From an uncultured Bacteroidota bacterium (GTDB taxonomy: Bacteria > Bacteroidota > Bacteroidia > Chitinophagales > Chitinophagaceae), in the NCBI GenBank assembly GCA_937928385.1, contig CALEZD010000079.1:296-64295 (forward strand): DNA of 64,000 nt, read 5' to 3'. Of the stretch, positions 1,770-59,010 are shown piece by piece. Below the pieces are notes generated by a model. That model searched no databases and was not told where the DNA came from. It saw only the letters and a list, made by a program, of their open reading frames with translations. The translations under genes were made by a program, and so were the position numbers. Position 1 is the first letter of the stretch. Each line of letters starts with the position of its first letter.

Positions 1770-1890
1770 CATTGTGTATGGCGTTAGCCCGATATTTACT
1801 TAGGCTAAAGCCGCCTTGATTAAATCATCTCCCCCTGACTTAAAAGTCAGGGCTATGGAAAAAATTTCATGCACTGCACCTGAAGTGCAA

Positions 1891-3528
1891 CTAATCTTTT
1901 AGCTGTACCCTTTTCAGGTCTATTACATTCATAGGTGTGGCGGCAAAGCCGCTGACACGCGGGCTGATGAAATGCGTCATCTGGTCGTAGAACAGGGGAA
2001 TGACCGGGGCGTTTTGCATTACTAAGCTGTCCATATTGCGGTATAATGTCCAGCGGGTGCTGTCGTTTTGCGCCAGCATAGCCTCATCGTACCAGCTGTT
2101 AAACTGAGGATGGTTGAAACGTGTGTAGTTGGGCGGGGCGGGCAGGTTGCCATTGAAGAATACCAGGTAAGTTTCCGCATCAGGATAATCGGCTATCCAT
2201 TGCCCGCGAAAGAATATGGCTTCCGACTTGCTCATCTGCTGCCGCAGTATATTCGACTGCATGATTTCTACCTCCACAGGTATGCCCACAGCCTGTAGCT
2301 GGTTGGCTACAAAATTTACAATATCTGCATATATATCCGGCGTAAGAACGGTAATGGGCGCTAAACCCTTGCCGCCCGGATAGCCTGCCTGCTCTAATAA
2401 TTCTGCTGCTTTGGCAGGATTATAATGATAGCCATAACTGTGCGCACTGTCGTAGCCGGGCATGCCCGCGGGTATAAAACCCGATGTAGCAGCTATGCCT
2501 ATTCCATTCCTGAAATAGGTGACGATTTTCTGCCTGTCCACAGCGTAGTTCATAGCTTGGCGCACCAGCACATTTTTTACAGGTGAGTTGGTCAGCAGTG
2601 CATTGGTGGTATCGGTGAGGAAACCTAAATATTCGGTATTCAGGTAAGTGCGTTTGCTCAGTACCAGTTTGTCTTTGTATTCTTCTTTCAGCTCACCCTT
2701 TTTTGTCAGCACCAGGTCTTTGAAAGAGCCGTCCAGTTCGTTCACAAAATCCAGTTCGCCCTGCAGGAAGCGGAAAAACTCGCTGGCCTTGCTGGTGGTG
2801 AAGCTGATTTTCACCGCATCCAGGTAAGGCAGGCTTGTGCTGTTATCATCCTGCTCGTGGTAACCGGGGTTTTTGTGCAGTATCAGCATATTGCCTTCAT
2901 CCCATAGTTCGAACATGAAAGGCCCTGTGCCACATGGATGTGTACGGAAGTCTTTGCCCCATTTACCCACCACTTCGTGCGGCACTATGCTGCAATATTG
3001 CATACTCAGTATCTCCGGCAACGGGCGGAAGGGGCGCAGCAGGTGAATGACGAATGTGGTATCATCTATGGCTACAAAGGGATTTTGCGCTGTGACACGG
3101 TCGTTGAATATCCATGCCCCGGGCGATGCGGTGGCGGGGTCAATAACCCGGTTGAAACTGTACACCACATCTGCGGCGGTCATTTTTCGTCCCTTCCCAC
3201 CTTCAAAAGCGGGATTGTCGTGGAAGTACACATCATTGCGCAGGATGAATGTATAGCTAAGGCCATCGGGGCTCATTGTCCAGCTTTTGGCCAGCGAGGG
3301 CACCAGGTGCAGGTTGCTGTCTGTAGCCACCAATGTATTGAACAGCATATTAGCCGTCCACATCATATACTGGTCTTTGGCAAATGCGGGGTCCAGCGAT
3401 TCCAGCGCCTTGCCCGACATATTCATGTGGAATACATTGTGCTCTTTATGCTGGCTACTGCCGCAAGCTGATAGTACCAGCAGTAGCGTCATACAGTAAT
3501 ATATACGGGAGCGAAACATAACACACAA
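1891..3528 (-). CDS. ABC-transporter substrate-binding lipoprotein, family 5 (oligopeptide/nickel type)
   Basis: 545-aa ORF with lipobox LLLVLSAC near the N-terminus. Size and motifs (LVPSLAKSW, AADVVYSF, GTGPFMF) fit the SBP_bac_5 fold. The true start is probably the Met at 3519. Confidence 0.8.
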   Translation of the reverse strand: MCVMFRSRIYYCMTLLLVLSACGSSQHKEHNVFHMNMSGKALESLDPAFAKDQYMMWTANMLFNTLVATDSNLHLVPSLAKSWTMSPDGLSYTFILRNDVYFHDNPAFEGGKGRKMTAADVVYSFNRVIDPATASPGAWIFNDRVTAQNPFVAIDDTTFVIHLLRPFRPLPEILSMQYCSIVPHEVVGKWGKDFRTHPCGTGPFMFELWDEGNMLILHKNPGYHEQDDNSTSLPYLDAVKISFTTSKASEFFRFLQGELDFVNELDGSFKDLVLTKKGELKEEYKDKLVLSKRTYLNTEYLGFLTDTTNALLTNSPVKNVLVRQAMNYAVDRQKIVTYFRNGIGIAATSGFIPAGMPGYDSAHSYGYHYNPAKAAELLEQAGYPGGKGLAPITVLTPDIYADIVNFVANQLQAVGIPVEVEIMQSNILRQQMSKSEAIFFRGQWIADYPDAETYLVFFNGNLPAPPNYTRFNHPQFNSWYDEAMLAQNDSTRWTLYRNMDSLVMQNAPVIPLFYDQMTHFISPRVSGFAATPMNVIDLKRVQLKD

Positions 3529-3719
3529 GATAATAGTAAATTGTTAAGCCATAGTGCAACAGAGCTGCCAACTGTTATACAATACATAATATTCTGTTAA
3601 CTATTCCTGTGATTATTAAGTTATTATGGAATTTTGCAGCCTACCTCATCTAAATAGTACAAGCAATTGCGGGCATAAACAGTTATTTTTGCCGCACATT
3701 TTAAAAAACGGGTGTATAT

Positions 3720-3947
3720 ATGAATCCGGACGAAAGAAGGATACACAATAAGGGCAATGGTTTTCGCGGGGCTGCGCATATCGGCATTGGCCTGCTGTAC
3801 ATTGCGGTGGGTTGCATGGTAGGCTATTATAAAACCTTTGGTGCCATCGTTCTTTCTAATACAGTGGCTTACAGCATAACCGCACTTATGGTGCTCTATG
3901 GAGTATTCAGAATATACCGGGGCTGGATGGATATGAGACGGAGCTAA
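3720..3947 (+). CDS. Small two-TM membrane protein (hypothetical)
   Basis: 75-aa ORF with two hydrophobic helices (IGIGLLYIAVGCMVGYY, AYSITALMVLYGVF), directly upstream of the binding-protein gene. It competes with a low-complexity antisense ORF at 3624-4010. Confidence 0.45.
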   Translation: MNPDERRIHNKGNGFRGAAHIGIGLLYIAVGCMVGYYKTFGAIVLSNTVAYSITALMVLYGVFRIYRGWMDMRRS

Positions 3948-3995: not shown

Positions 3996-4949
3996 ATGAG
4001 CATAACACATATAAATAAAATAATGCCTAAAATTGCGATTATGAAATCTGGCAGGTTGGTTTTGGCGCTTGGAATTTTGATGCTCTCAGCAATTAGTTGT
4101 GGTGAAGACAAAGCTAAAGACAAACCAACAGATACACTCACAAGCGGCACTATAGATATTTCTGTAGACGAAACTTACCGCCACGTTATACAGGAACAAC
4201 TGGAAGTATTTGACAGCAGCTACCCTGATGCTAAAATAAATGTGCAGTACAAGCCGGAGAGCGAATGTATCAAAGATTTTATGGATGGTAAAGTGAGGAT
4301 GATACTGGTGACACGTGACCTGGGTGCTGATGAAAAGGCAGTACTGGAAGGTAAGAAAATAGTGCCCACATCGCTGGATATTGCCAAAGATGCGGTAGCG
4401 GTAGTTGTAAACAATAAGAATGAAGATACCGTCTTCAGCATAACACAATTGAAAGGCATACTTACAGGGCAGTATAGCAAGAAATACAACGTGGTATTTG
4501 ACAACCCCGGTTCCAGCACGTTGAGGTATATGCTCGACTCGCTGATACCGGGCGAAAAGTTGGGCGATAATGTTTATGCGGCAAAAGGCAATGATTCTGT
4601 GATACAGTATGTAGTGGATAACCCCGATGCTATAGGTTTTGTAAGTGTGAGCCATATCAGTGATTATGAAGACCCCGAAGGGCTGGCGTTTATCAGCAGT
4701 GTGAAGGTAGCCACGATATTCAACGACAGCTTAGACAAAGGCTACAAACCTTACCAGGTTTATATAGCTCCGGAATGGTACCCGTTGACGCGCAAGCTGT
4801 ATTATGTACACCGCGATACCTACTCCGGACTCGCGGCGGGTTTTGCCAAGTTCCTGAGAGAGCAGCGCGGGCAGCTGGTGTTCAAACAGGCGAGGCTGTT
4901 CCCTACCAGGGTGAATATCATCTTCAGGGAAGCAGGCATGAACCAATAA
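3996..4949 (+). CDS. PstS-family (PBP-like-2) periplasmic binding lipoprotein
   Basis: 317-aa ORF with lipobox LSAISCG. Motifs GTIDISVDETY, MILVTRDL and DAIGFVSVSHI are typical of phosphate-binding-protein-like fold. The start may be the internal Met (MKSGRL). Confidence 0.7.
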   Translation: MSITHINKIMPKIAIMKSGRLVLALGILMLSAISCGEDKAKDKPTDTLTSGTIDISVDETYRHVIQEQLEVFDSSYPDAKINVQYKPESECIKDFMDGKVRMILVTRDLGADEKAVLEGKKIVPTSLDIAKDAVAVVVNNKNEDTVFSITQLKGILTGQYSKKYNVVFDNPGSSTLRYMLDSLIPGEKLGDNVYAAKGNDSVIQYVVDNPDAIGFVSVSHISDYEDPEGLAFISSVKVATIFNDSLDKGYKPYQVYIAPEWYPLTRKLYYVHRDTYSGLAAGFAKFLREQRGQLVFKQARLFPTRVNIIFREAGMNQ

Positions 4950-4999
4950 TATTTTTTTAATCAAAAGCGTATATATAAAAAGAACTATACCTAAACAAG

Positions 5000-6628
5000 G
5001 TGTCTAAAAAGATGAAAATGAAACAACTGATAGTAACTATTGCTGCTGCGGCCATGACGATAACCGCCACAGCACAGTCGTTGGAAGAAGGAATGAAAAT
5101 GTACAGGTATGAAAGGTATGCCAGTGCGAAAAAGATTTTACAACCACTATCTGCTACCGATGCTGCAGCTAACTATTACTACGGCCTGTCAGAATTGCAA
5201 CTGGGTAATGCTGATGCGGCGCTCAATGCATTTGTAAAATACCCCGAGGACTATGCCAACATCAGCGGCACGGTGAGGGTGAAGTTTGCTGTAGAAGGCG
5301 AAGCGGCGGGTATGCAGGCAGCACAGGCGCTGGCAGATATGGGCAAGAAAAAAGACTGGATACAGAAAAGATATGCTGCCGATGCCATCAATTATTCAAA
5401 AGGTGGTAATAAGCAACTGGCTGTAGACTGGTATAATGAGGTGCTGGAAAAAATGGTTACACCTGAATTGCTGGTAGCCTCAGGAGATGCCTACCTGCAG
5501 GTAAACGGTGGCGGTGGCCAGGCTATGACCAATTACGAAAAAGCCGTGGAGAAAGACCCGAACAACTCGCTGGCATATTCACGCATGGGTAAGCTGATGT
5601 ATAACGCCCGTAACTACGATAAAGCGCTGGAGCACTGGAATAAAGCACAAGAGGTAGACCCTACCAATCCGCTGCCTTACCGCGATATGGCTTATGCTTA
5701 CACTTACGTAGGAAAATATGAGCTGGCGAAAGAGAATATGGAAAAATATCTTGAATACTCTGATAAGTCTCTGGCGGATCAATATACTTATGCGGAAATA
5801 CTATACCAGGCTAAATATTTCCAGGAAGCGATTAATAAAATCAATGAGCTGAGGGGCCAGGGTTTAAACAAGTTAAGGTCTTATGGTATACTAGCCTACA
5901 GCTATATGGAACTGAAAGATTCAGATGCTGCACAAAAAGCTTTGGAAAATGCGCGTATTTATTTTGGCAACCAGAAGCCTGAAGAAATATTCACTAAAGA
6001 CTACCTGAAACAGGGACAGATATACCTGATGAATAACCTGGGGGACTCTGCAAACATAGCTTTCAGCAAATCGCTGAGCATGGATACAAGTGGTAACAAG
6101 ATAGAAGCCTACCGTGAAATCGCTGAATCATTCCGTAGCAACAGGGACTGGATAAACGCCGGCAAATGGTATGAAAAAATCTACGCAGACCTTGCCGAAG
6201 TAGCTACTGCCAATGATTATTTCTGGGGTGGTTATAGCTATTACCTGTCTATAACTACTGAGGGTATAGATACAGCGGCTATGCTGCAGAAAGCAGATAC
6301 TATTTTCGGAACTATGATAGTTAAGTTTCCTGAGCAGCCTTCGGGCTACTACTGGAGGGGGCGTGTAAATGCTGCGCGTGATGCTGAAGGCGAAAAATGC
6401 CTGGCAGCACCTTATTTTGAAACCTGGCTGGGGCTTGAAGTAGAAGGTGTTAAAAAGTCTGATAAAGATTTGCTGGTAGCCTATCAATACCTTGCATTGT
6501 GCAAATTCAGAACGAGCGTGTATGCAGAAGCTGTAAAATATGCTGACCTTATTTTGGCTATAGACCCCAACAACGAGTTTGGTAAACAGATAAAAGAGCT
6601 GGGTGAAAAGGAAATGAAAAAAGGATAA
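5000..6628 (+). CDS. Secreted TPR-repeat protein
   Basis: 542-aa ORF (GTG start in the track; ATG at 5012 is also possible). It has signal peptide LIVTIAAAAMTITATAQ and multiple TPR-like motifs (NSLAYSRMGKLMYNARNYDKALEHWNKAQEVDP). Confidence 0.75.
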   Translation: MSKKMKMKQLIVTIAAAAMTITATAQSLEEGMKMYRYERYASAKKILQPLSATDAAANYYYGLSELQLGNADAALNAFVKYPEDYANISGTVRVKFAVEGEAAGMQAAQALADMGKKKDWIQKRYAADAINYSKGGNKQLAVDWYNEVLEKMVTPELLVASGDAYLQVNGGGGQAMTNYEKAVEKDPNNSLAYSRMGKLMYNARNYDKALEHWNKAQEVDPTNPLPYRDMAYAYTYVGKYELAKENMEKYLEYSDKSLADQYTYAEILYQAKYFQEAINKINELRGQGLNKLRSYGILAYSYMELKDSDAAQKALENARIYFGNQKPEEIFTKDYLKQGQIYLMNNLGDSANIAFSKSLSMDTSGNKIEAYREIAESFRSNRDWINAGKWYEKIYADLAEVATANDYFWGGYSYYLSITTEGIDTAAMLQKADTIFGTMIVKFPEQPSGYYWRGRVNAARDAEGEKCLAAPYFETWLGLEVEGVKKSDKDLLVAYQYLALCKFRTSVYAEAVKYADLILAIDPNNEFGKQIKELGEKEMKKG

Positions 6629-54695: not shown

Positions 54696-54759
54696 TTTAA
54701 CTCGTTAGTGAATGTCTTTTTTATTTGCCTCGTTGAGATCGCTATCGCTAAGTTGTATC
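54696..54759 (+). repeat. Copy 2 of 64-nt direct repeat
   Basis: Same sequence as copy 1 apart from a few substitutions or indels. It is followed by the 16-bp perfect palindrome CCCCGCCGCGGCGGGG (54759-54774) and a second TGTATCGCCACAGGGGTATC (54785-54804; compare 54637-54657). Confidence 0.9.
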
Positions 54760-55641
54760 CCCGCCGCGGCGGGGCAGGCTGTTGTGTATCGCCACAGGGG
54801 TATCAGCCTGAAGTTTTTCTGCCAAGCGGGGAAAAGACTGTACAGCCGGGGGCGGGGCTACGGTATCGCCGTCCTCCGTTTCTGCTTCTTCTTCCTGCGC
54901 ACCCTCGCCGGCATAGTAGCCCGATTCTTCCAACTGCTCATCGGCAAATTTTTTCAGCTCGCGCCATTTCTCGTAATTACGCGTCTGCTCCTCTTCCATC
55001 CTTTTGATATCTTCATTTGTAGGCACATAGTCCAATACCCGCAGCCCCTTTTCTGCATATTCGCGGGCCATGTACGGGTTGTCACGTACTGTTTTTGCGC
55101 GCATGCCGGGGTTGTAGTCCGGGCCATAGCGCATCTCGTTATATTCTTCCAGTTCATTTACAAACTGCCTATAGGATGGGGTTTGGGATTTCGGCTTTTC
55201 GCCAACCGGTTCATCACCAGGCTGCCCCTTGCGGCTGTACCAGTCGTTGGCCAGTTTGGTATCGGCCTCTATAGCGCGTATGATCATAAAGGGCGGCATA
55301 TCAGTTTCCACCATTTCCAGCCTGTCTTTTACCCGGTAGTGTCTTTTTATTTTCACTTCACCCGCTATGATGGCCCGCAGTTGGCGGCGTTTCAGCAGCA
55401 TGGTAGCATACTCCTGCTCTGCCAGCCGCTGTTCTTCTTCGTGGTAGCGGTTAACGGCTTCCTGCTGGGTGGCTGCGAGCCGCTCGCTGATGTATTGCCT
55501 GACATCGGGGTGGTTGGCCAGCCTGCGGGCGGCAATTTTGAGCGCCTCGCCTGTGGCATGGGGGTAGGCAGCTTTGTAGGCTTGGTCTTTATCGCCCGAG
55601 AGGAGGTAATGGTGGGCGAAGAGTTCATGTTCTATTTTCAT
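54748..55641 (-). CDS. Terminase-small-subunit-like (Terminase_2/HTH) protein, orphan
   Basis: The ORF track gives 54748-55740. I prefer Met34 (55641), where MKIEHELFAHHYLLSGDKDQAYKAAYPHATGEALKIAARRLANHPDVRQYISERL matches the TerS N-terminal HTH pattern (F..EYL..gn...AA..AGYs...A...a.rLL.np.V...I). The C-terminal tail is acidic. Confidence 0.5.
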   Translation of the reverse strand: MKIEHELFAHHYLLSGDKDQAYKAAYPHATGEALKIAARRLANHPDVRQYISERLAATQQEAVNRYHEEEQRLAEQEYATMLLKRRQLRAIIAGEVKIKRHYRVKDRLEMVETDMPPFMIIRAIEADTKLANDWYSRKGQPGDEPVGEKPKSQTPSYRQFVNELEEYNEMRYGPDYNPGMRAKTVRDNPYMAREYAEKGLRVLDYVPTNEDIKRMEEEQTRNYEKWRELKKFADEQLEESGYYAGEGAQEEEAETEDGDTVAPPPAVQSFPRLAEKLQADTPVAIHNSLPRRGGDTT

Positions 55642-55805
55642 AGTGATGGCTATTGCGGCCCATCCCGAGGGAAAGGCCGGGTTTTCCGATAATACAAATA
55701 TAGCAATTTTATACGAAATCAGCAATATTTGTGAATTCAAAATTCAAAACTCAAAATTCAAAAGAGGTGTTGTGTGTCCGGCGCGAAAGGCTCCCGGCCC
55801 CTCCA

Positions 55806-55850
55806 CTGGCGCCGGTCTTCCGAAGGGTGACCTGTGTCAGATTAAGTCAC
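55806..55850 (+). repeat. 45-nt REP-like element, copy A
   Basis: CTGGCGCCGGTCTTCCGAAGGGTGACCTGTGTCAGATTAAGTCAC contains a 7-bp stem (GGGTGAC at 55825-31, GTCACCC at 55846-52). It is followed by the palindrome CCGGTCTGAGACCGG (55851-55865). Confidence 0.85.
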
Positions 55851-55912
55851 CCGGTCTGAGACCGGCATTATTTGTTTGTCAGCTTAATAATATATTCGTT
55901 GAAAAATAGCAT

Positions 55913-56464
55913 ATGTCAGGCAGGTACAAAGTCAGGGAGAGTTTCAAGCCTCATTTCGTTACGAGTACAGTAGTGGGTTGGGCGGACGCAATCAGCAGGC
56001 CGGAATACAAAGACATCATACTGGATAGCCTGCGTTATTGCCGTCAGCATAAAAACCTGTTGATACATGCCTGGGTAATTATGAATAACCATATTCACCT
56101 GATAGTAAGTGCAGCCAATGATGCGGACCTACCGGATATTATCCGGGATTTTAAGAAATACACCAGCGGCAGGTTGATTGAAGCCATTTCATCCAACACG
56201 ACTGAAAGCAGGAAGAAATGGTTGCTGAATATGTTTTTGTTTGCAGGGAAAGGTAATCATGATAATGAGCGCTACCAGTTTTGGCAAAAAGATTATCATC
56301 CGATTGAATTGAGCAATGATACTTTATTCCAGCAGAGGTTGGACTATCTGCATGAAAACCCGGTGCGTGCGGGTATAGTGCGTGAGCCGCAACATTATTT
56401 GTATAGCAGCGCTATAGACTACTATGAACAGAAGCCGGGCTTACTTGCCCTGGATATGTTTTAG
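55913..56464 (+). CDS. rayT: REP-associated tyrosine transposase (RayT; IS200-like Y1 transposase)
   Basis: 183-aa ORF with the HUH motif (NHIHLIV), preceded by FVTSTVVGWADAISRPEYKD, and a C-terminal Tyr region (NPVRAGIVREPQHYLYSS). Confidence 0.85.
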   Translation: MSGRYKVRESFKPHFVTSTVVGWADAISRPEYKDIILDSLRYCRQHKNLLIHAWVIMNNHIHLIVSAANDADLPDIIRDFKKYTSGRLIEAISSNTTESRKKWLLNMFLFAGKGNHDNERYQFWQKDYHPIELSNDTLFQQRLDYLHENPVRAGIVREPQHYLYSSAIDYYEQKPGLLALDMF

Positions 56465-56490
56465 TGCTTTCATCTGCTTTTGGTACTCTG

Positions 56491-56512
56491 AATGCCGGTC
56501 AGAGACCGGGTA
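56491..56512 (+). repeat. Right inverted REP arm downstream of rayT
   Basis: AATGCCGGTCAGAGACCGGGTA has the hairpin core CCGGTC-aga-GACCGG (56495-56509). It matches the reverse complement of 55848-55869 at 19 of 21 positions by eye. Confidence 0.8.
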
Positions 56513-56855
56513 AACTAGCAGACACGGATGCCCGCCCGGATGAACCCCGCCAGAATGAACTTGTCGGGCTGGCGTTCGGACGGGCCCTGCTGAACATCCG
56601 CGCCAGTGGGGAAACCATGACAATTAGATTAGCGACCAATTAAATTTTAGCCACACACTGTAATATCTATAATTTGTAAGGTGTACATTTTCAATACCTG
56701 TAATTTTTATGAAAAAAGTAAACGAGAAAAACACCCCCCTTTTGTAAGGATAATGTTTTATAACATTGTTTACAAGTTTGAAGAACCGGTTCAACATTTG
56801 TATGCGTTAGCTGAAAAGCAGAAATAGAGTAGGCATTAACCATAAATTTTAAAAT

Positions 56856-57212
56856 ATGAAAAAAATTATTATGGCAGCATCTTTGCTTGCCTTAATACTT
56901 AGCACCAATGTTACTTATGCTAAGGAAATACGATATCAATCCAAGACGTCATATACTAATAGGAATTTTGAAACTGTTGAGGCAACTGACGATAAACCAC
57001 CAGGTGCCAGATGCCCGGATGTGCCAGGCACTTGCTCAATAACTGTTATTATCTACGATGACTTTACCGGCGATATTGAGATGGAAGCAATGGTTATACC
57101 ATTTAATGACCCTAATCCAAATCCAACTCAAGAATCAACTGATGCTATCCTTAACGATATTTGTATGATCGTTGAAAGCAATGGTGTCATTTATAATGAC
57201 TATCAACCTTAA
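56856..57212 (+). CDS. Small secreted protein (hypothetical)
   Basis: 118-aa ORF with signal peptide MAASLLALILSTNVTYA. It is AT-rich with a Pro/Asn-rich patch NDPNPNPTQ. I recognised no family. Confidence 0.55.
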   Translation: MKKIIMAASLLALILSTNVTYAKEIRYQSKTSYTNRNFETVEATDDKPPGARCPDVPGTCSITVIIYDDFTGDIEMEAMVIPFNDPNPNPTQESTDAILNDICMIVESNGVIYNDYQP

Positions 57213-57257
57213 TAAATACATCTATAATGTGCGTTAATGGCATATAGTTAAAATGAT

Positions 57258-57287
57258 CAGGCTGCCTTGATATTCTAAGGCAGCCTG
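57258..57287 (+). terminator. Intercistronic hairpin (attenuator/terminator)
   Basis: CAGGCTGCCTT (57258-57268) and AAGGCAGCCTG (57277-57287) form a perfect 11-bp stem with an 8-nt loop, between the 118-aa and 477-aa genes. Confidence 0.55.
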
Positions 57288-57309
57288 TATCGTTAATAGT
57301 TATAATAAA

Positions 57310-58743
57310 ATGAAAGTAGTTACATTATTTTTTGTCGCAATCCTAATTTTTACTAATCAAAGTCTGGCACAATGCTTCGTACTAAAAGCAAATATGCGTG
57401 ATTGTGCATTATGCGTTGTGGGTATCTCTAGTTTCAATCCTGTAAAAACAGGGTTACCCGCTTTTGCGATTTTCAATGAATCAAACAGAGAAGATAGTGC
57501 TGATATTGAATATGCCGGTAAGTTTTCTGAACGCGGTATAAAACTTCTGTTCAACGATAACTGGAATGATAAATTAAATTGCGACAACAGCTTGTCATGT
57601 GTTTTTGGGCTAAATAAAGAGGGTAAAGCAGTTTACAAATCATCACTAAAATCAATAGACTCTGCACAGCTTAGCACTTTCCTGTCAAACAATGCGGCAG
57701 AAAAAAGTGCACATAGTAAGCAGAGAGATTCGTTTTTATATACAAACAATGATTTTGGCACAATCAAGATCCTTAATGCCGTAGATAAGCAGTTGATAAA
57801 TACCATAAGTTTCGCCGATTTCGACCTTCAATTGCTGGCCAACAAAATGCATGGGGTAGAAAAGCAAAGGTTTGAAAAATATGGTACCATAATTAACAAA
57901 AGAACTAGTGCCCTCTTGGGGAAATTTCAGAACTTCAGAGTTGACAATATGGGGAACTTATACGTAAAGATATTATTTCATAATACCATGGATAGCCTTA
58001 CCGCTAATATTACAGATGAGCACGCTATTGCCCATTACGATGCCAGGGGTAATTACAAAGATGTTTACCTAATAGAAGTACCCGAAACTGTTTCTTTTCA
58101 TGACTATGATTTTTTACAGGCTAATGAAGATACGCTGTATGCGCTGACTTACGACCGTACTAAGCATAGAGAGCCTGAAAAGCCAATGAGCGAAATCAAT
58201 TTTATTGGCCGCTATGTGAAAAATAGCGGAAATTACCGGTTCTCCGGTTTTGTGCAGTTTAAAATGCCGTATATATATCAATTGAAATTTGGGTATTCTT
58301 ATTTAGGTTCCGGAATTTCCACATATCCATTATTTGTCTCTAAATTCTCTAATTCAGTTTATAACATAGAAACAAATAAATCGGTATTGATTATTGATAG
58401 TGCACAATACATTGCAGGTATAGATACATCATCCTTTAACCCTGAAAAATCTATTGAAACACATGAAAAACTCGATGTACGTGGTATAAAGCCAGTGTAT
58501 GATAAGTCTGATTTATATGCTATGCCTTATTTATACGACGGCAGACTTTATATTAATTATTACACAGCCAACCTGGAAAAAAAACATACCTATCATTGGG
58601 GAGAGGCTACTATAGGGGGCAAACCAATTGTTTCTGCGGCTATAAAAGATGGACAGGATGTCTTTTCTGTAATTTATGCTGATAAACATAAAACATGGAA
58701 ATCCGTCGCAATCCCGATGAGTCTTTTCTATCCCGGGACATAA
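57310..58743 (+). CDS. Secreted protein with N-terminal CxxC, possibly beta-propeller-like (hypothetical)
   Basis: 477-aa ORF with signal peptide FFVAILIFTNQSLAQ and an early CALC motif. It is beta-rich and Asn/Tyr-rich (e.g. VDNMGNLYVKILF), reminiscent of Bacteroidota 6-bladed propeller lipoprotein families. That assignment is not secure. Confidence 0.55.
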   Translation: MKVVTLFFVAILIFTNQSLAQCFVLKANMRDCALCVVGISSFNPVKTGLPAFAIFNESNREDSADIEYAGKFSERGIKLLFNDNWNDKLNCDNSLSCVFGLNKEGKAVYKSSLKSIDSAQLSTFLSNNAAEKSAHSKQRDSFLYTNNDFGTIKILNAVDKQLINTISFADFDLQLLANKMHGVEKQRFEKYGTIINKRTSALLGKFQNFRVDNMGNLYVKILFHNTMDSLTANITDEHAIAHYDARGNYKDVYLIEVPETVSFHDYDFLQANEDTLYALTYDRTKHREPEKPMSEINFIGRYVKNSGNYRFSGFVQFKMPYIYQLKFGYSYLGSGISTYPLFVSKFSNSVYNIETNKSVLIIDSAQYIAGIDTSSFNPEKSIETHEKLDVRGIKPVYDKSDLYAMPYLYDGRLYINYYTANLEKKHTYHWGEATIGGKPIVSAAIKDGQDVFSVIYADKHKTWKSVAIPMSLFYPGT

Positions 58744-58754
58744 TAAGACCTTTT

Positions 58755-58799
58755 CTGGCGCCGGTCTTCCAATGGGTGACCTGTGTCAGATCAAGTCAT
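58755..58799 (+). repeat. 45-nt REP-like element, copy B
   Basis: CTGGCGCCGGTCTTCCAATGGGTGACCTGTGTCAGATCAAGTCAT is in the same orientation as copy A and matches it at 41 of 45 positions by eye. Confidence 0.85.
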
Positions 58800-59010
58800 C
58801 TGCACCGAAGCCCAGCCTCTTTCTCCCGTCACTACGAGGCACGAAGCAGTCTCGCCAAATGAGGAGTGGGTTCGGTGTTACGCGAGATTATCTCGTTCAT
58901 TATATCTTGTCATTTGCCTCAATGATTGCTTCGCAGTTGCTTCCGCCATAACGCAACGGGCGTTACTATGTCGCAATGACCCCGCCTTGACGGACGGGGC
59001 AGGCAGCTAG
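58800..59010. repeat. Cluster of short GC-rich imperfect palindromes (REP/BIME-like intergenic filler)
   Basis: It contains GTCACTACGAGGCACGAAGCAGTCTCGC, CGAGATTATCTCG, GATTGCTTCGC...GTCGCAATGAC and CCCCGCC-ttgacg-GACGGGG (58980-58999). These motifs resemble the widespread Bacteroidota ...CGCAATGAC / GATTGCTTCG... intergenic repeats. Confidence 0.5.

Follow-up and report, generated by a model that had tools for sequence, protein, structure and literature searches.

A probable REPtron of the Bacteroidota RayT class, flanked by inverted bipartite hairpin modules, in a Chitinophagaceae genome

Here we describe a rayT gene and the hairpins around it in a stretch of 64,000 nucleotides (nt) from an uncultured Bacteroidota bacterium of the Chitinophagaceae (contig CALEZD010000079.1, positions 296 to 64,295, of assembly GCA_937928385.1). 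The whole stretch is called the window below, and unlabelled coordinates refer to it. With a probability of roughly 0.8, we read the locus as a REPtron, that is, a RayT transposase gene together with its repetitive extragenic palindromes (REPs), of the Bacteroidota RayT class known as subclass 2.6 or Bertels group 5. The gene lies between two inverted modules of about 66 nt, which RayT would mobilise by the mechanism proposed below.

A RayT protein of a described class

The 183-residue product was placed by its scores against curated hidden Markov models. It matches NCBIfam NF047646 (REP-associated tyrosine transposase, REP_Tyr_transpos) at 107.4 bits, with a cut-off of 80, over residues 7-165 and positions 5-146 of the 146 in the profile, and Pfam Y1_Tnp at 33 bits. 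The initial annotation had proposed a RayT/REP architecture while allowing that the protein might side with IS200/IS605 TnpA; the IS200 model gives 27.7 bits, below its cut-off of 55, and the proposed architecture is borne out by the NF047646 score together with the same module, free of rayT, in related genomes.

The conserved motifs are N59-H60-I61-H62, W124-Q125, Y145-LHENP and a C-terminal Y164-SS, with 85 residues between HuH and the tyrosine. Judged by sequence, they agree with TnpA-Y1 subclass 2.6, which is the RayT class of Bacteroidetes (Quentin et al. 2018, PMC6006769) and equals RAYT group 5 of Bertels et al. (2017, PMC5581495). The class description of Quentin et al. gives about 179 amino acids, NH[LIV]H, WQ, YIH[QN]NP, a median HuH-Y spacing of 82 and an SS motif; the fourth residue of the tyrosine motif is E in the window, where that description has Q or N. 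The best sequence match in the PDB is 4ER8, the E. coli TnpArep, with both motif regions aligned. More than 1600 homologues were returned, many of which already bear the names RayT or REP-associated tyrosine transposase; of the named ones, those from Taibaiella, Ferruginibacter and Polluticoccus are nearest. Exact look-ups of the window RayT, its 118-residue neighbour and P0021 gave no match. Such proteins are already named by the standard annotation pipeline, and the class to which the system belongs has been described.

The gene is under strong purifying selection. The ratio of nonsynonymous to synonymous substitution rates (dN/dS) is 0.045 against the syntenic orthologue in Flavipsychrobacter SMAG_U7314 (hereafter U7314; 97.8% amino acid identity) and 0.08 against a second homologue (L001), and the catalytic motifs are intact in all eight RayT proteins compared.

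A bipartite module at both ends of the gene

The inverted pair AATGCCGGTC-NN-AGACCGGGT flanks rayT at 55849-55869 (minus strand, reading ACCCGGTCTGAGACCGGCATT) and 56491-56511 (plus strand, reading AATGCCGGTCAGAGACCGGGT), with 0 mismatches to the pattern and none expected in shuffled sequence. The palindrome CCGGTC-N3-GACCGG, carried by each copy, occurs exactly twice in the 64 kb (55851-55865 and 56495-56509), against 0.01 expected. A second, outer pair consists of CCACTGGCGC at 55803-55812 and GCGCCAGTGG at 56600-56609. The initial annotation was therefore right in placing a Y1 transposase gene between inverted hairpin copies and in seeing the palindrome in both, and its coordinate slips are trivial: the inner elements, given as 55848-55869 and 56491-56512, were each drawn one base too long, and of the outer pair the left member was correct while the right one, given as 56599-56608, lies one base further on.

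That annotation also treated the inner and outer pairs as separate. Both are present, but when the flanks of the window gene were aligned with those of three homologues at 83-89% identity (L001, L002 and L004), they gave a single inverted repeat of about 66 nt, in the order hairpin 1 (CCGGTC-N3-GACCGG), GACAC, hairpin 2 and GCGCCAGTGG; the two pairs are therefore the two ends of one module (Table 1). Its consensus in the right-end orientation reads (T)GAAT(G/A)-CCGGTC-N3-GACCGG-(G/A)TGA-~8 nt-(A)GACAC-GGATG-CCCTGCGGAA-CATCC-GCGCCAGTG. In the REP proper, foot and stem are formed by the outer CCACTGGCGC; the CCGGTC hairpin is a second, accessory one on the inner side. The RayT unit as a whole runs from CCACTGGCGC to GCGCCAGTGG (55803-56609), and homology to a relative's contig restarts at 56612, beyond the right module. 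No Rfam family matches the modules.

Table 1. Coordinates of the rayT unit, its modules and the element nested in it
Feature	Position	Strand	Basis or remarks
rayT open reading frame, 183 amino acids, Y1 HUH transposase	55913-56464	+	Open reading frame call, family models, motifs
Left bipartite module	55803-55870	-	Outer terminus at 55803; nhmmer E=1.4e-17 against the module profile; pattern matches
Left foot CTGG	55806-55809		Plus strand reads CCA-CTGG, then hairpin 2, GTGTC, spacer, hairpin 1
Left hairpin 2	55814-55817 (GGTC), 55829-55832 (GACC)		Loop TTCCGAAGGGT
Left GTGTC	55834-55838
Left hairpin 1	55851-55856 (CCGGTC), 55860-55865 (GACCGG)
Right bipartite module	56489-56609	+	Split by nested insertion; nhmmer pieces 56489-56554 and 56584-56608; alignment with seven other ends
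Right hairpin 1	56495-56509
Right GACAC	56521-56525
Right hairpin 2 arms	56526-56530 (GGATG), 56595-56599 (CATCC)
Right terminus GCGCCAGTGG	56600-56609
Third, partial module	58754-58800	-	Left-end orientation; nhmmer E=1.1e-5, profile positions 22-66; pattern match
Nested palindromic mini-element, 54 nt	56534-56587	+	In the right hairpin-2 loop; direct GCCC at 56530-56533 and 56584-56587

Hairpin 2 with its CTGG foot is a known subclass 2.6 REP, since Table S1 of Quentin et al. shows exactly such a form in the subclass entries used here. These list CTGG- or CTAG-footed hairpins, among them CTGGCGCAAGGTTCTACCTTGTGC from Flexibacter litoralis, GCTGGCGCGAGCATATGCTCGTGCC from Spirosoma linguale, GCTAGCGCTCGT...ACGAGTGCC from Zobellia and TGCTGTTCGACATGTTCCGCAGGGCATGTCGAAC from Pedobacter saltans (PMC6006769). 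RayT/REP systems in Bacteroidota had thus already been described there, and of the initial view that the locus defines a candidate family in a little-documented phylum, the REP system stands and the novelty does not.

In the third module of the window the REP part is present (CTGGCGC...GTGTC at 58755-58787) and hairpin 1 is degenerate. Compared with the homologous copy in a relative from a sludge metagenome (L032, 7886-7929; run X1), about 9 of 45 positions differ, although the surrounding DNA is 98-100% identical, and the differences are compensatory, so that the palindrome CTGACACCGGCCCCC-CAAC-GGGGGCCGGTGTCAG stays perfect, a pattern suggestive of rapid, structurally constrained evolution of the repeat or of gene conversion.

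Compensatory change in both hairpins

Both hairpins are conserved through compensatory changes. In an alignment of 30 modules (A1), RNAalifold predicts the two hairpins, 97.9% of stem cells pair, and double-sided changes occur at four pairs in 26 cells. The covariation score is 0.212, compared with 0.084 in shuffles (0 of 500 reach the observed value) and at most 0.084 when pairing partners are slid along the alignment. Among 58 distinct modules there are eight perfectly complementary stem variants of hairpin 1, including CCGGTC/GACCGG, CCGGTT/AACCGG, CCAGTC/GACTGG, GCCAGT/ACTGGC, CCGATT/AATCGG and CCGGAC/GTCCGG, and at least 14 of hairpin 2, while GCGCCAG is retained in 45 of 57.

The stem of hairpin 2 is not equivalent on the two strands. 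Alignment columns 40 (A) and 66 (C) stand opposite one another in every sequence, an A x C mismatch on the top strand that becomes a G.T wobble on the complementary one, so that the strand 5'-CTGG-CGC-stem-loop-stem-GTG-TC can form an uninterrupted 8-bp stem.

More distant relatives carry the same arrangement with other stems. A RayT of 67% identity (L033) lies between inverted bipartite modules with CCGGAC-AGA-GTCCGG and CAAGTC/GACTTG, and that of Taibaiella soli (L034, 60% identity) between modules with GACAGTC-GGA-GACTGTC and CGAGAG/CTCTCG, yet the ACAC and GCGCCAG flanks are unchanged in both. Because hairpin 1 changes with the RayT lineage, it is a candidate specificity determinant, and the invariant flanks of hairpin 2 are a candidate cleavage and guide site.

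Modules with and without rayT in related genomes

Inverted bipartite modules stand on both sides of the gene at all eight RayT loci for which both flanks were in hand (60-100% identity), the left module of L001 covering only profile positions 2-56 and thus lacking the outer terminus. Scanning genome contigs with CCGGTY-NN-ARACCGGRT-N8-11-GACACRG, a pattern that misses roughly 40% of modules, matched 27 stretches. Nineteen are in Chitinophagaceae: several Flavipsychrobacter metagenome-assembled genomes (MAGs), Taibaiella, UBA6221, UBA5543, the 7.57-Mb genome 5N237 and one MAG assigned to Chitinophagaceae only. The remaining eight, in unrelated phyla, score E > 0.03 with the profile of the module and were taken as chance matches. 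Another 27 loci, nearly all with the full bipartite module, came from scanning metagenomes for the REP proper, and a search with CTGGCGC-N14-30-GTGTC for copies of the REP proper without hairpin 1 found none beyond the modules already known.

Over all fetched sequence, nhmmer finds 70 modules: 21 linked to rayT, 39 without it (at least 800 nt of inner flank free of the gene) and 10 of undecidable context. U7314, the closest relative, has five more modules on three other contigs. The initial annotation had asked whether the element recurs elsewhere in the genome; the window holds the third, partial copy, and rayT-less copies lie in related genomes. Orphan modules take the form of singlets, inverted doublets and a fourfold direct array. 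Two relatives hold doublets without rayT, their termini pointing outward: UBA6221 (L011) has 1842-1905 (-) and 2036-2100 (+) around a 130-nt spacer, and L021 has 2963-3029 (-) and 3084-3148 (+) around 55 nt. Open reading frames that contain a module are short (130 amino acids or less) and probably spurious.

The array lies in Chitinophagaceae 5N237 (L016 4683-5107), downstream of a 1503-residue open reading frame, and has four direct tandem modules that repeat about every 121 nt, with GTGCCAGTGAG after each. In U7314 (L006 2888-3144), a tandem duplication of about 193 nt, comprising the last 33 rayT codons and the right module, gives that genome two right ends.

The distribution of orphans bears on the possibility that the palindromes are merely local regulatory or terminator structures of one gene and form no repeat family. 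The left hairpin 1 is followed by a T-rich run and was called terminator-like. Against this, 31 loci have the 66-nt module but no rayT, with both orientations and arrays represented, and the inverted pairs have no chance expectation from shuffles; contradicted by the orphan copies, this explanation is extremely improbable. In the region as a whole, neither sigma-70 promoter-like nor terminator-like sites are enriched over shuffles.

Several observations nonetheless count against a REPtron of this class. The canonical GT[AG]G foot is absent, the foot here being CTGG, a subclass 2.6 variant, and the similarity of RayT to the solved TnpArep (4ER8) is weak (E = 0.011). Copy number appears low in relatives (5-8 modules found per genome by the strict pattern; counted separately, 5-6 by the exact pattern and 6-8 with nhmmer in the fetched loci), and the 64-kb window holds only the two flanking copies and the partial one. 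Classical REPs number in the hundreds. For RAYT group 5 a modest flanking-16-mer frequency of 31 occurrences has been reported, and 5-8 modules per relative are in line with or below this figure. The papers drawn on here report biochemical data for no subclass 2.6 protein.

The same apparently low copy number would also suit a fossil system, in which RayT is inactive and the modules persist as neutral palindromes or as ones co-opted by the host, for example as terminators or stabilisers of mRNA. Many orphans are diverged or partial, among them the third module of the window and copies in L026 and L029, the right module of the window is disrupted by a nested insertion, and the close relative L032 has lost the unit at this site. 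A dead enzyme, however, is hard to reconcile with the low dN/dS and the intact catalytic motifs, with compensatory change that keeps the hairpins even in orphans, or with the near-identical duplicated units described below, and terminator-like sites stand no higher than in shuffles. We consider this explanation improbable.

A proposed mechanism

On the reading that the locus is a subclass 2.6 REPtron, RayT would bind the folded module on single-stranded DNA, for instance on the lagging-strand template, as E. coli TnpArep and IS608 TnpA do with their own hairpins. By the same analogy it would read the conserved unpaired flanks (CTGG/GCGCCAG and GACAC) and cleave beside the hairpin through Tyr145, with the metal held by His60 and His62; rejoining of the ends would then leave modules copied or moved to new extragenic sites. 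Such a mechanism is established for E. coli TnpArep and IS608 TnpA. For this copy of RayT, we infer the binding, the position of cleavage, the active strand and the mobilisation of the modules from those two enzymes. The unit at 55803-56609 can probably also relocate whole.

Stationary gene or mobile unit

In the literature, REPtrons are viewed as not transposing as a unit. Part of our evidence agrees with this. In the window and in U7314 the unit occupies the same site, with a TerS-like gene on one side and one for a DegT-type aminotransferase on the other, where UBA6221 has its doublet, so that unit or remnant at one syntenic site indicates vertical persistence. L032 has no unit there, which speaks for movement; its site holds 240 nt of unrelated palindromic DNA instead, and so is not a clean empty site. 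A possible relic of the right terminus in L032 (GCGCCAacgtGTGG) was not relied on, the local alignment being weak (score 18).

An alternative is that the unit of 0.75-0.8 kb (CCACTGGCGC...rayT...GCGCCAGTGG) is an autonomous, compact element resembling an insertion sequence (IS), which transposes from terminus to terminus, with orphans and doublets as deletion derivatives akin to miniature inverted-repeat transposable elements (MITEs). RayT would then be neither domesticated nor stationary; this is compatible with the assignment of the protein and differs only in what moves. In its favour, a contig from a relative of 55% identity (L052) carries two units of 1004 nt (2877-3880 and 4906-5909), 1 kb apart and with 5 mismatches (99.5% identical), each running from CCACTGGCGC to GCGCCAGTTGG with unrelated DNA on both sides. 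Closer to the window, other flanks join exactly at 55802/55803 in metagenome runs X2 and X3, and likewise in L035. In contigs of X2, the left flank of the window continues into other DNA exactly at 55803, and a 95%-identical unit with a different left flank starts exactly there. L035 shows this second case over its full length, in a unit 93% identical in DNA to that of the window. Its rayT has 93.4% DNA identity to the window gene, with third codon positions as close as those of the syntenic U7314 copy, but its left context is unrelated and the junction falls exactly at CCACTGGCGC. Units of 83-89% protein identity lie in four different neighbourhoods; in one of them (L004) an AAA_21/AAA_15-type ATPase gene survives only as a C-terminal fragment that adjoins the left terminus. 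Doublets without rayT and with outward termini, known from relatives (L011 and L021) and not from the window, are likewise what such deletions would leave.

These observations are good evidence that units of this family can duplicate whole, and moderate evidence that one has done so in the window's own lineage. Free transposition of the unit nevertheless has to be set against its persistence at one syntenic site in the window, U7314 and UBA6221 (there as a doublet only) and against its occurring only once in the 64-kb window and in each of the 20-kb loci L033 and L034. Most units in different contexts are saturated at synonymous sites when compared with one another, which leaves room for ordinary rearrangement as the cause of those cases, and the L052 pair comes from a single low-coverage metagenome contig. 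We therefore regard an autonomous element as a possible account, at clearly less than even odds. Bolder still, and in our view unlikely, is the idea that a unit still autonomous, moving terminus to terminus and shedding MITE-like doublets and singlets, represents a living intermediate between an IS200-type element and a domesticated REPtron, with module edges serving as breakpoints for the swapping of cassettes in a surface-polysaccharide locus.

In L052, each unit also has an extra outer REP on its left; another type of REP (CTGGCGCAAGCATGC...GCGTGCTTGTGCC) occurs within the unit and once more at 6543-6617.

Nested and neighbouring elements

The mini-element in the right module reads GCCCGCCCG...CGGACGGGC and contains an inner CGCCAG/CTGGCG stem. 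No other right end has it, nor do the X2 contigs, in which GGATGCCC is joined directly to TGCGGAACATCC. Its core (56544-56584) occurs with different flanks in at least six different contigs of run X1, and the same composite of module plus insert is found in UBA6221 (L020 6885-7007). Apparently it represents a second family of small, mobile palindromes that nests within the first and may prefer the hairpin-2 loop.

To the right of the unit lies an AT-rich cassette (56612-58799) with two open reading frames, of 118 and 477 amino acids and without a Pfam match. It is 97.8% identical to L032, whereas the flanks on both sides are only about 83% identical, and it is missing from U7314. High identity begins 1-3 nt past the right module's outer terminus and extends as far as the inner edge of the partial third module, a pattern that suggests recent exchange with breakpoints at module edges. 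Within it, 20 nt upstream of the 118-residue frame, is an Rfam DUF805b RNA motif (56801-56835, plus strand; 37.4 bits, gathering score 35.6).

On the left, a 330-residue open reading frame (54748-55740, minus strand) resembles Terminase_2 weakly at its N-terminus (21.7 bits, where the cut-off is 26.1). Because it holds the same position in UBA6221, U7314 and the X1 relative, it does not belong to the cargo of the rayT unit. Immediately left of the unit, the tract AATTCAAAATTCAAAACTCAAAATTCAAAA (55731-55768) is a further short repeat of the dispersed kind: two sludge metagenomes contain its 30-35 nt at high word depth (39-55), in several short, unrelated contigs. Two relatives have the palindrome CCCGATAGCTATCGGG immediately outside the left module, and a third has it at its site without rayT (L006 at about 3835-3855, L011 at about 2107-2143 and L032 at about 5545-5565), another recurrent small palindrome of a hypervariable spot.

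Comparison with known systems

What is understood of REP and RayT biology rests almost entirely on Enterobacteria and Pseudomonas, and for the Bacteroidota class the literature, as represented by the account of subclass 2.6, is a table of hand-picked hairpins. To this we add a consensus for the subclass, namely a bipartite module whose two hairpins covary and whose GACAC and GCGCCAG flanks are invariant; an asymmetry between the strands (G.T on one, A x C on the other) from which the active strand can be predicted; natural variants whose hairpin 1 differs from one RayT lineage to another, and a range of orphan forms; and hints of continuing whole-unit duplication. Together these supply defined substrates with which a subclass 2.6 enzyme could be tested biochemically for the first time, and the module family can be used as a rearrangement marker in Chitinophagaceae genomes. 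The current picture of REP systems is unchanged; the locus is a well-documented new example of a described class.

As in E. coli, where RayT is known as TnpArep (YafM; PDB 4ER8; Ton-Hoang et al. 2012 and Messing et al. 2012, as cited in PMC6006769), the gene for a Y1 HUH enzyme lies between inverted REPs. In both systems the palindromes are extragenic, share a conserved 5' foot and are found singly, as doublets and in arrays, those of E. coli including bacterial interspersed mosaic elements (BIMEs). E. coli REPs have GTAG as their foot, against CTGG here, and number hundreds of copies, against apparently about ten; the module here is bipartite, and about 30 extra residues separate the HUH and W/Y regions of the protein here (query 83-123 against chain 83-93).

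With the IS200/IS605 elements IS608 and ISDra2, the locus would share HUH/Y1 chemistry on single-stranded hairpins without target duplication, and like them the unit appears precise-ended and is duplicated in L052. It departs from them in a tyrosine motif of Y-x3-N-P (Y145-LHE-N) instead of Y-x3-Q and an IS200 score below cut-off, in ends that are 66-nt inverted repeats where those of the IS elements are not inverted repeats, and in having no tnpB.

REPINs are reportedly known from Pseudomonas and Enterobacteria through the work of Bertels and Rainey in 2011. They resemble the present system in forming inverted doublets without a transposase, as in L011 and L021, and in a RayT gene under purifying selection. 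Here the doublet spacers are 55-130 nt, population sizes appear far smaller, and singlets and direct tandem arrays are at least as common as doublets.

The closest likeness is to the other REPtrons of subclass 2.6. They share a protein of about 180 amino acids with NH[LIV]H, WQ, Y-x-H-x-NP, long HuH-Y spacing and a C-terminal serine motif, and, in the account of Quentin et al., a gene between "atypical" hairpins without GT[AG]G, and hairpin copies elsewhere in genomes, here in those of relatives. The REP proper, CTGG-CGC-stem-loop-stem-GTG-C, matches the tabulated motifs of Spirosoma, Flexibacter, Zobellia and Pedobacter, and the loop TTCCGCAGGG of one Pedobacter saltans entry is identical to the loop here. 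The Flavipsychrobacter/Taibaiella clade of the Chitinophagaceae is not named in the portions of that account and its supplementary table drawn on here (PMC6006769). Set beside its tabulated relatives, the present system differs in a 66-nt module with a second, inner hairpin, where the entries compared are single hairpins of 24-49 nt; in a hairpin-2 loop of 10-11 nt, where theirs are mostly 3-4 nt; and in the evidence for duplication of the whole unit.

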